From Escherichia coli (GTDB lineage Bacteria > Pseudomonadota > Gammaproteobacteria > Enterobacterales > Enterobacteriaceae): 64,000 nucleotides of DNA. A model generated the notes under the pieces. That model was not told the origin of the DNA. It made no database searches and saw only the letters and a program-made list of their open reading frames with translations. Shown piece by piece: positions 44,655 to 45,524 of the stretch (positions within the stretch are counted from its first letter, which is position 1; each line of letters opens with the position of its first letter). Location: the NCBI RefSeq assembly GCF_030013595.1, contig NZ_CP122768.1; one strand, given 5' to 3'. The translations under genes and the position numbers were made by a program.

Positions 44655-45524
44655 TTACTCGATTTTCTTCCCTTCCATCAATCGTTGCACCAGCGGCAGC
44701 ATAATTAATTCCATTGCCAGACCCATTTTGCCGCCGGGCACCACTAACGTATTGATGTGGGAAATGAATGAGCCTTGCAACATCGCCAGCAGCCAGGGAA
44801 AATCGATCCCTTCCAGATTACGAAAATGGATCACCACAAAGCTTTCATCCAGCGACGGGATAGCTTTTGCCGCGAACGGGTTTGAAGTGTCGACGGTGGG
44901 AACGCGCTGGAAGTTAAGATGGGTGCGGGAAAACTGCGGTGTGATGTAGTTGATATAGTCTTCCATTGAACGCACTACCGAGTCCATCACTGCTTCTCGT
45001 GAGTGCCCGCGCTCGCTGGTGTCGCGGATCAGTTTTTGAATCCACTCAAGGTTAACGATAGGCACCACGCCGACCAGTAAGTCCACATGCTGCGCAACGT
45101 TATGCTGTGGCGTGACTACGCCGCCGTGTAAACCTTCATAAAACAGTACATCAGTGGGTTCTGGTAAAGGTTGCCATGGGGTGAATGTCCCCGGTACCTG
45201 ATTCCACGGTACGGCTTCGTCGTAGGTATGCAGATATTTGCGAGATTTCCCTTTGCCGCTCTGACCATATTCAATGAAGGTTTGTTCCAGCAGGCCAAAG
45301 TCGTTCGCTTCGGGGCCGAAGTAGCTGATATGCCGCCCGGCGTCGCGCGCTTTGCGGATCGCCATGTCCATTTCCGGGCGTGTGTAACGGTGAAAACTGT
45401 CGCCTTCCACCTCGGCTGCATGCAGATTTAACTGCGCGAATATTTTACGAAACGCGAGGCTGGTGGTGGTGGTCCCCGCGCCGCTGGATCCTGTTACCGC
45501 AATGACCGGATGTTTGGCAGACAT
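44655..45524 (-). CDS. prkB: phosphoribulokinase homolog (P-loop kinase)
   Basis: 289 aa; N-terminal Walker A VIAVTGSSGAGTTT. Confidence 0.9.
   Translation of the reverse strand: MSAKHPVIAVTGSSGAGTTTTSLAFRKIFAQLNLHAAEVEGDSFHRYTRPEMDMAIRKARDAGRHISYFGPEANDFGLLEQTFIEYGQSGKGKSRKYLHTYDEAVPWNQVPGTFTPWQPLPEPTDVLFYEGLHGGVVTPQHNVAQHVDLLVGVVPIVNLEWIQKLIRDTSERGHSREAVMDSVVRSMEDYINYITPQFSRTHLNFQRVPTVDTSNPFAAKAIPSLDESFVVIHFRNLEGIDFPWLLAMLQGSFISHINTLVVPGGKMGLAMELIMLPLVQRLMEGKKIE

Follow-up and report, generated by a model that had tools for sequence, protein, structure and literature searches.

Why should Escherichia coli, an organism without a Calvin cycle, carry a homologue of phosphoribulokinase (PRK), which together with RuBisCO is usually treated as one of the two enzymes unique to that cycle? 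This question is raised by prkB, a gene lying within the 64,000-nucleotide stretch of E. coli contig NZ_CP122768.1 (RefSeq assembly GCF_030013595.1) that was analysed here as a whole (the window). The gene (44655..45524, minus strand) encodes a 289-amino-acid (aa) type I PRK homologue, as indicated by its open reading frame (ORF), profile and structure matches, and annotation. Both prkB and its puzzle are already known, the former as an annotated E. coli gene and the latter as a recognised oddity; this analysis contributes the probable operon setting of the gene, the clade to which it belongs and the age of that clade, a measure of how strong selection is, and a residue signature. Our answer, which we hold with moderate confidence, is that PrkB is probably a working D-ribulose 5-phosphate (Ru5P) 1-kinase of a heterotroph-specific subfamily, with its allosteric switch lost, its lid remodelled, and a low-flux role independent of RuBisCO. 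In the proposed mechanism, PrkB would bind ATP and Ru5P and move the gamma-phosphate to C1, yielding ribulose 1,5-bisphosphate (RuBP).

PrkB is a PRK-family protein that retains the catalytic residues

The prkB ORF opens with an ATG codon and its product begins MSAKHPVIAVTGSSGAGTTTTS. Against Pfam PF00485 (PRK/uridine kinase family), PrkB scored 257 bits (cut-off 22, E=1.3e-76) with the whole profile covered, and against the NCBIfam 'phosphoribulokinase' equivalog NF011997 it reached 525.4 bits (cut-off 362), the match spanning 1-288 of 290. The Udk-specific NCBIfam profiles failed on PrkB, giving only 27.6 bits for NF004018 (cut-off 180) and 22.7 bits for TIGR00235 (cut-off 220.3). The best solved relative was the R. 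sphaeroides PRK (1a7j; E=1.1e-93, residues 1-288 on 1-289, 50% identity), a match that already settles the predicted fold of PrkB. At the nucleotide level, positions 44100-46000 of the window matched 5,425 of the 5,426 complete E. coli genomes at 95-99.9% identity, where the region is annotated as prkB, yhfA, yheU, and yheT. These data show that prkB is a true PRK-family member and a long-annotated E. coli core gene. They also bear out two statements of the initial annotation, namely that this 289-aa ORF contains a P-loop (VIAVTGSSGAGTTT, residues 7-20 of the minus-strand ORF) and that it has features of the PRK/uridine-kinase family.

To place the residues of PrkB, three groups of sequences were compared. 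PrkB relatives were collected from GTDB with one genome per species; 583 were found, and the analyses used the best 80 loci (the PrkB type), so that the taxonomic range given below is a lower bound. The first contrast set comprised six plasmid-borne PRKs, from Azoarcus, Bradyrhizobium, Sinorhizobium, Paracoccus, Cereibacter, and a mycobacterial plasmid. A fructose-bisphosphatase gene adjoins all six, and transketolase and RuBisCO genes lie near five; the mycobacterial-plasmid PRK has aldolase, GAPDH, and phosphoglycerate kinase genes in place of the latter two. A profile of these six gave the second contrast set, 119 further Calvin-Benson-Bassham (CBB)-like PRKs, which are mostly alphaproteobacterial and taxonomically narrow. 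One member of the comparison set (P0126) sits in a non-cbb context, and its removal only sharpens the contrasts described below. Unless E. coli numbering is indicated, residue numbers are those of R. sphaeroides PRK; positions 31, 42, 45, and 49 are the same in both proteins, and the E. coli equivalents of residues such as K165, R168, and R187 are one lower (K164, R167, S186).

The Walker A motif, or P-loop, of PrkB is encoded at 45465..45506 (minus strand; residues 7-20, identified from the sequence and its alignment) and includes S14 and T18; it would bind the ATP phosphate. Its VTGSSGAGTTT stretch fits the pattern GSSGAGT(S/T) and is found unchanged in all 80 members of the clade, and S14 and T18 are invariant in the 80 PrkB-type and the 119 CBB-like PRKs alike. 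Residues 40-49 (EGDSFHRYTR, codons 45378..45407, minus strand) align with D42, H45, and R49 of the R. sphaeroides enzyme, the first being catalytic and the other two Ru5P-binding. The same full conservation in both sets, along with presence in E. coli PrkB, was found for D42, H45, R49, Y98, H100, E131, K165, R168, D169, and R173, and the pairwise alignment showed that R186 is likewise retained in E. coli PrkB. According to the summary of structural and mutagenesis work by Kono et al. (2017), R49, Y98, H100, H45, and K165 bind Ru5P or phosphate, while R168 binds ATP. Because all the catalytic, ATP-binding, and Ru5P-binding residues are retained, PrkB appears to lack nothing required for the PRK reaction, and a loss of PRK chemistry is not indicated by its sequence.

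The PrkB type departs from Calvin-cycle PRKs at a few defined positions

A different picture was obtained for a second group of residues. R31, H69, R187, R234, and R257 are invariant in all 119 CBB-like PRKs and in all six plasmid-borne ones, whereas E. coli PrkB has Q31, S186, H233, and H256 (E. coli numbering) at the arginine positions and thus lacks these four arginines of Calvin-cycle type I PRKs. Throughout the PrkB type, R187 is replaced by Ser, H69 by Tyr, and Y175 by His (80/80 each). Position 31 is never Arg in these 80 sequences (Q, M, T, S, and others occur), while Arg is found at position 234 in 47 and at position 257 in 44 of them. H167, which lies between K165 and R168, is relaxed to I, V, or L. 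In an entropy scan, 11 of the 15 CBB-invariant positions that vary most in the PrkB type fell within residues 31-32 and 234-257, segments that make up 26 of the 289 positions. The 'lid' segment (residues 164-186 in E. coli numbering; 44967..45035, minus strand) combines both patterns: it keeps K164, R167, D168, R172, and R185, and in the alignments it shows the clade-specific changes I166 (His in CBB PRKs), H174 (Tyr), and S186 (Arg). Y68 and S186 (E. coli numbering) are unique to the PrkB clade, the other divergent PRK-like groups having retained H69 and R187. Hence, constraint has been lost on one specific surface but kept in the catalytic core, and a few lid positions have been replaced and then frozen.

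Kung et al. (1999) reportedly attributed the NADH/AMP allosteric site, which lies at a subunit interface, to R31, R234, and R257 of Calvin-cycle PRKs, and Runquist et al. (1998) reportedly located R168, R173, and R187 in the mobile lid. Taken with these roles, the residue pattern predicts that the response to NADH and AMP is lost or changed in PrkB. The subfamily would have been freed from constraint on the allosteric arginines and would have fixed lid changes of its own (R187S and Y175H) together with H69Y.

PrkB-type genes form one clade under strong purifying selection

All of the best 80 of the 583 PrkB relatives, which share 68-99% identity, came from heterotrophic Gammaproteobacteria, distributed over the orders Enterobacterales, Aeromonadales, Vibrionales, and Alteromonadales. 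Across these loci, 107 of the 289 positions are invariant, every catalytic residue being among them. A phylogeny against autotroph PRKs had been proposed in the initial annotation as a check; in such a neighbour-joining tree, the PrkB type separates as its own clade by a single split that was recovered in 200 of 200 bootstraps. The ratio of nonsynonymous to synonymous substitution rates (dN/dS) of prkB was 0.014-0.033 in comparisons with E. albertii, Citrobacter, Enterobacter, and Pluralibacter, which is below that of yheT, yheU, yhfA, and yhfK and the lowest in the neighbourhood after crp. Because of this low dN/dS, the near-universal presence in E. coli, and the conservation across orders, prkB is a functional gene under strong purifying selection and not a relic. 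The subfamily is probably an old and vertically inherited one, found here only in heterotrophic Gammaproteobacteria, that kept its whole catalytic apparatus.

Two kinds of database record require separate mention. Apparently 'plasmid-borne' prkB copies are explained by the records H9 (4.9 Mb, E. coli) and H11 (4.1 Mb, Proteus mirabilis) of the 'plasmid' collection, which are evidently chromosomes. In a public protein collection, the 377-aa entry P0001 consists of an Arabidopsis RbcS transit peptide joined to E. coli PrkB (99% identical), and is evidently a synthetic plastid-targeting construct, not a natural protein.

Possible roles of PrkB in a host without RuBisCO

If PrkB makes RuBP, which enzyme would use it? 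A blastn search of 5,426 E. coli genomes with form I cbbLS and form II queries, which reaches RuBisCO genes of about 65% identity or more, gave no match (see also Flamholz et al. for E. coli as a host without RuBisCO). Likewise, no cbb gene was found near prkB in any of the 80 PrkB-type loci; the gene lies there beside yheSTU, yhfA, crp, ribosomal genes, or ast/arg genes. The description of E. coli as an organism without a Calvin cycle therefore holds for RuBisCO, with neither a form I nor a form II gene detected, and PrkB would serve a low-flux purpose in which RuBisCO is not involved.

The literature was covered through open-access full texts and bioRxiv, with subscription journals outside this scope. 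No study of the substrate or role of E. coli PrkB, or of the phenotype of a prkB mutant, was found there, and neither was an earlier demonstration that would contradict the initial annotation, which had called the substrate unresolved. The mentions of prkB that did occur were incidental: in connection with operon polarity, for an antisense RNA that undergoes A-to-I editing, and under a KEGG category in a transcriptome of the gut. Most matches to 'prkB' concerned either the cbbII gene of R. sphaeroides or lists of metagenome markers.

Several points weigh against PrkB as a working Ru5P kinase. First, the same literature yielded no enzyme assay of the E. coli protein. Second, in the ΔrpiAB strain CCMB1, an active rubisco combined with a heterologous Prk whose Walker A motif had been inactivated did not restore growth; therefore, chromosomal prkB gives no appreciable RuBP flux there, even with Ru5P as a dead end. 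Low expression alone could explain this result. Third, the fixed changes that the PrkB type carries at H69, Y175, and R187 occur in no other PRK-like group sampled and could alter the use of the substrate or the nucleotide.

A wider proposal would make the PrkB-type enzymes a subfamily of PRKs with a function of its own, dating back several hundred million years and restricted to heterotrophic Gammaproteobacteria, that has shed the NADH/AMP switch and remodelled its lid (Y68, H174, and S186 in E. coli numbering), and that either makes RuBP for a purpose unrelated to RuBisCO, for example as a signalling or overflow metabolite, or phosphorylates another sugar phosphate. In this full form we regard it as speculative and put forward only tentatively; if true, it would point to a part of pentose-phosphate metabolism that has so far gone undescribed in E. 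coli and related bacteria.

Among the alternatives to a working Ru5P kinase, the one that survives best is a neofunctionalised kinase, in which the PRK fold and phosphotransfer are kept, the acceptor is another ketose or pentulose phosphate or the nucleotide use differs, and RuBP is not the physiological product. Such a shift would suit the fixation of H69Y, Y175H, and R187S in 80 of 80 sequences at positions that do not vary in any of the other PRK-like groups sampled, the more so as two of these three changes lie in the lid beside R173 and R186 and H167 is relaxed to I/V/L between K165 and R168. It would also agree with the failure to find a RuBP-consuming partner in the genome or the neighbourhood, and with the inability of chromosomal prkB to feed rubisco in CCMB1. 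However, the reported Ru5P/phosphate ligands (H45, R49, Y98, H100, K165, and R173) are all invariant, the PRK equivalog score is well over its cut-off, and the CCMB1 result is open to the expression-level explanation given above; on balance, we consider this alternative unlikely. Far less credible is a mainly non-catalytic PrkB with a regulatory or scaffolding role, such as binding a metabolite or a partner, whose kinase activity would be incidental. The lack of a known metabolic partner or phenotype and the tight linkage to the non-metabolic yheS, yheT, and yheU in three orders would be compatible with it, but none of the catalytic residues, including the P-loop Ser/Thr and the acidic D42, E131, and D169, varies across the four orders, a constancy that pure binding would not need. 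As for a remnant of a Calvin cycle once present in an ancestor, now on its way to being lost and with no present function, a notion to which the blastn-negative RuBisCO search and the lack of a described function in the literature searched might lend colour, it is effectively refuted by the selection data (dN/dS 0.014-0.033), the presence in 5,425 of 5,426 E. coli genomes, and the 68-99% identity across four orders with 107 of 289 positions invariant.

PrkB compared with known PRKs and related kinases

The closest characterised system is CbbP/PrkA of R. sphaeroides (Cereibacter; 1a7j, EC 2.7.1.19), which PrkB resembles in length (290 versus 289 aa), P-loop, and catalytic and Ru5P-binding residues, and with which it shares the NCBIfam equivalog model. 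Unlike this enzyme, the PrkB clade is unconstrained at the R31, R234, and R257 sites and has Ser, Tyr, and His fixed at R187, H69, and Y175, respectively; unlike Calvin-cycle type I PRKs in general, prkB lies outside any cbb cluster and its host lacks RuBisCO. Type I PRKs are NADH-activated, AMP-inhibited octamers, and putative PRKs occur in heterotrophic prokaryotes as well (Gurrieri et al.). The plant-type or cyanobacterial type II PRKs (6h7g, 6hzk), which are dimeric and regulated by redox state and CP12, share the Pfam family and the reaction chemistry with PrkB, but the similarity covers only about 110 residues (E=1e-4 to 1e-5), and this type differs in length, quaternary structure, and regulation. 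The archaeal PRK of Methanospirillum hungatei (5b3f), which works in the reductive hexulose-phosphate pathway, provides a precedent for a genuine PRK outside photosynthetic autotrophy; however, it feeds a RuBisCO, which PrkB hosts lack, and the similarity is distant (E=7e-5). Udk (PF00485) has the P-loop kinase fold and the Pfam model in common with PrkB, whereas the PRK-specific Ru5P-binding residues are present in PrkB.

Orphan PRK homologues are not confined to the PrkB clade. Prk was present in 4,284 GTDB genomes in the 2021 survey by Asplund-Samuelsson and Hudson (PMC7895386), and in just 1,490 of these was it accompanied by Rubisco. Other 'orphan' PRK homologues in RuBisCO-less genomes keep H69 and R187, and the Y68/H174/S186 signature (E. 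coli numbering) is specific to the PrkB clade. Three such orphans, the proteobacterial PRKs P0126 (loci L093/L094), P0277 (L091/L092), and P0132 (L087/L088), come mostly from metagenome assemblies, two of them marine; their neighbours are housekeeping genes (leuS, lptE, uvrD, an ABC exporter gene, and truA), with no RuBisCO within 7 kb. The contexts of these and other divergent PRK-like groups were also considered as a clue to the role of PrkB, and nothing transferable emerged. An unusual arrangement was seen in the heterotroph Achromobacter sp. ACM02 (L089:7001-11516), where a divergent PRK-like gene (267 bits versus the 362-bit cut-off) stands immediately 5' of a homologue of the form-III-like RuBisCO large subunit (365 bits versus the cut-off of 497). 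Downstream of this pair of PRK-like and RuBisCO-family genes come genes for a TauE-family protein and a SagB-type nitroreductase.

Where PrkB-type genes stand among PRKs matters for several fields. A 2023 review (PMC9978339) confines PRK to phototrophs and methanogens, yet about two thirds of the Prk-positive genomes lack Rubisco, and the PRKs of heterotrophs represent a blind spot. In metagenome papers, prkB is often counted as a marker of carbon fixation; the signature described here (S186, Y68, and H174 in E. coli numbering, with no Arg at position 31) separates 'orphan' PrkB-type genes from Calvin-cycle PRKs in the annotation of genomes and metagenomes. Work on synthetic autotrophy and rubisco-selection strains in E. 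coli, moreover, assumes the absence of native PRK activity or RuBP. Finding the role of PrkB would fill a gap in the E. coli gene catalogue, and could bring to light a new reaction of pentulose phosphates or a way of using RuBP that does not depend on RuBisCO.

A probable yheS-yheT-yheU-prkB operon that ends with prkB

The initial annotation described prkB as sitting alone, a statement that did not hold: the gene is co-directional with three upstream genes on the minus strand, yheS (an ABCF factor; 46812-48725), yheT (45790-46812), and yheU (45578-45796), each recognised as an ORF and a probable operon member, and it starts only 53 bp from yheU. Its list of neighbours (yhfA, the yheUTS genes, and crp nearby) was accurate, as judged by ORFs, Pfam, and E. 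coli annotation. On the other side of prkB lie the convergent yhfA (OsmC family, PF02566; 44196..44600, plus strand) and, beyond it, the crp ORF (43262-43894, minus strand).

The stop and start codons overlap at both the yheS/yheT and the yheT/yheU junctions. The 53-bp spacer between yheU and prkB (45525..45577) contains no conserved promoter in an alignment of 16 Enterobacteriaceae; its length there varies from about 17 to 100 bp, with some genera having as little as about 17-25 bp, and the sole conserved element is the Shine-Dalgarno sequence GGAG (45530..45533, minus strand), 5 nt 5' of the prkB ATG. A scan for sigma-70-like promoters gave no candidate inside this spacer. A promoter of prkB's own was considered and rejected: the lone sigma-70-like match (45822-45795, just before yheU) is within chance, and the spacer is unconserved. 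A preprint on E. coli ABCF proteins takes yheT, yheU, and prkB to be co-cistronic with yheS and also mentions operon polarity. Because the genes share a strand, the gap is only 53 bp, nothing but the ribosome-binding site is conserved in the spacer, the gene order is kept, and this preprint agrees, prkB is probably the last gene of a yheS-yheT-yheU-prkB transcription unit. PrkB would accordingly be made as the last product of this unit, probably at a low level. Between the convergent prkB and yhfA genes lies a GC-rich hairpin with an 8-bp stem, GCCGGATA-N6-TATCCGGC (44621..44642; RNA fold), with a folding energy of -17.2 kcal/mol (z=-3.9 against shuffles) and a weak U-tract. It is likely a shared transcript end, the putative terminator role being read from the fold.

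The arrangement yheS-yheT-yheU-prkB-(yhfA)-crp is common to Enterobacterales, Aeromonadales, and Vibrionales. Overall, crp lies within 8 kb of prkB in 57 of the 80 loci, and yhfA adjoins prkB in 55, including loci of Alteromonadales without crp linkage. In the latter order, the linkage to crp and yheSTU has been lost while yhfA is often retained, with ribosomal-protein genes upstream of prkB and, downstream, yhfA, genes of the arginine succinyltransferase pathway (astA/astD), and argD. This neighbourhood is the same ancestral gene-order block as in E. coli, without a metabolic partner. Guilt by association was accordingly set aside as a route to function, the conserved neighbours being a housekeeping or ancestral block that points to no metabolic partner. 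In Colwellia, Thalassotalea, and a metagenome-assembled genome of Alteromonadaceae (loci L054, L066, L068, L070, and L071, about 3400-8900), prkB directly follows six co-directional genes. Their sizes (441, 120, 129, 206, 329, and 135 aa), the only basis for their identification in these loci, would fit secY and the ribosomal alpha operon (rpsM-rpsK-rpsD-rpoA-rplQ), with prkB about 135 bp past the last gene.

Could the position next to crp indicate control by CRP? No site resembling the CRP consensus (TGTGA-N6-TCACA-like) was found above chance upstream of prkB or yheS, and the whole window contains 29 CRP-like sites, as compared with 25.5 expected by chance in shuffled sequence. CRP control of prkB is thus unsupported; the closeness to crp follows from conserved gene order and does not count as evidence for such regulation. 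The only CRP-like site near the locus, TGTGACGTCCTTTGCA at 44012-44027 (2 mismatches to the consensus), lies in the divergent crp-yhfA intergenic region and faces crp and yhfA, not prkB.

One further observation concerns the opposite strand. A 2026 mBio paper describes TadA-dependent A-to-I RNA editing in an antisense transcript of prkB ('prkB-as', plus strand). On this antisense strand, the tRNA-Arg2-like loop motif TTACGAA occurs twice, at 44818-44824 and 45445-45451, with weak flanking stems.

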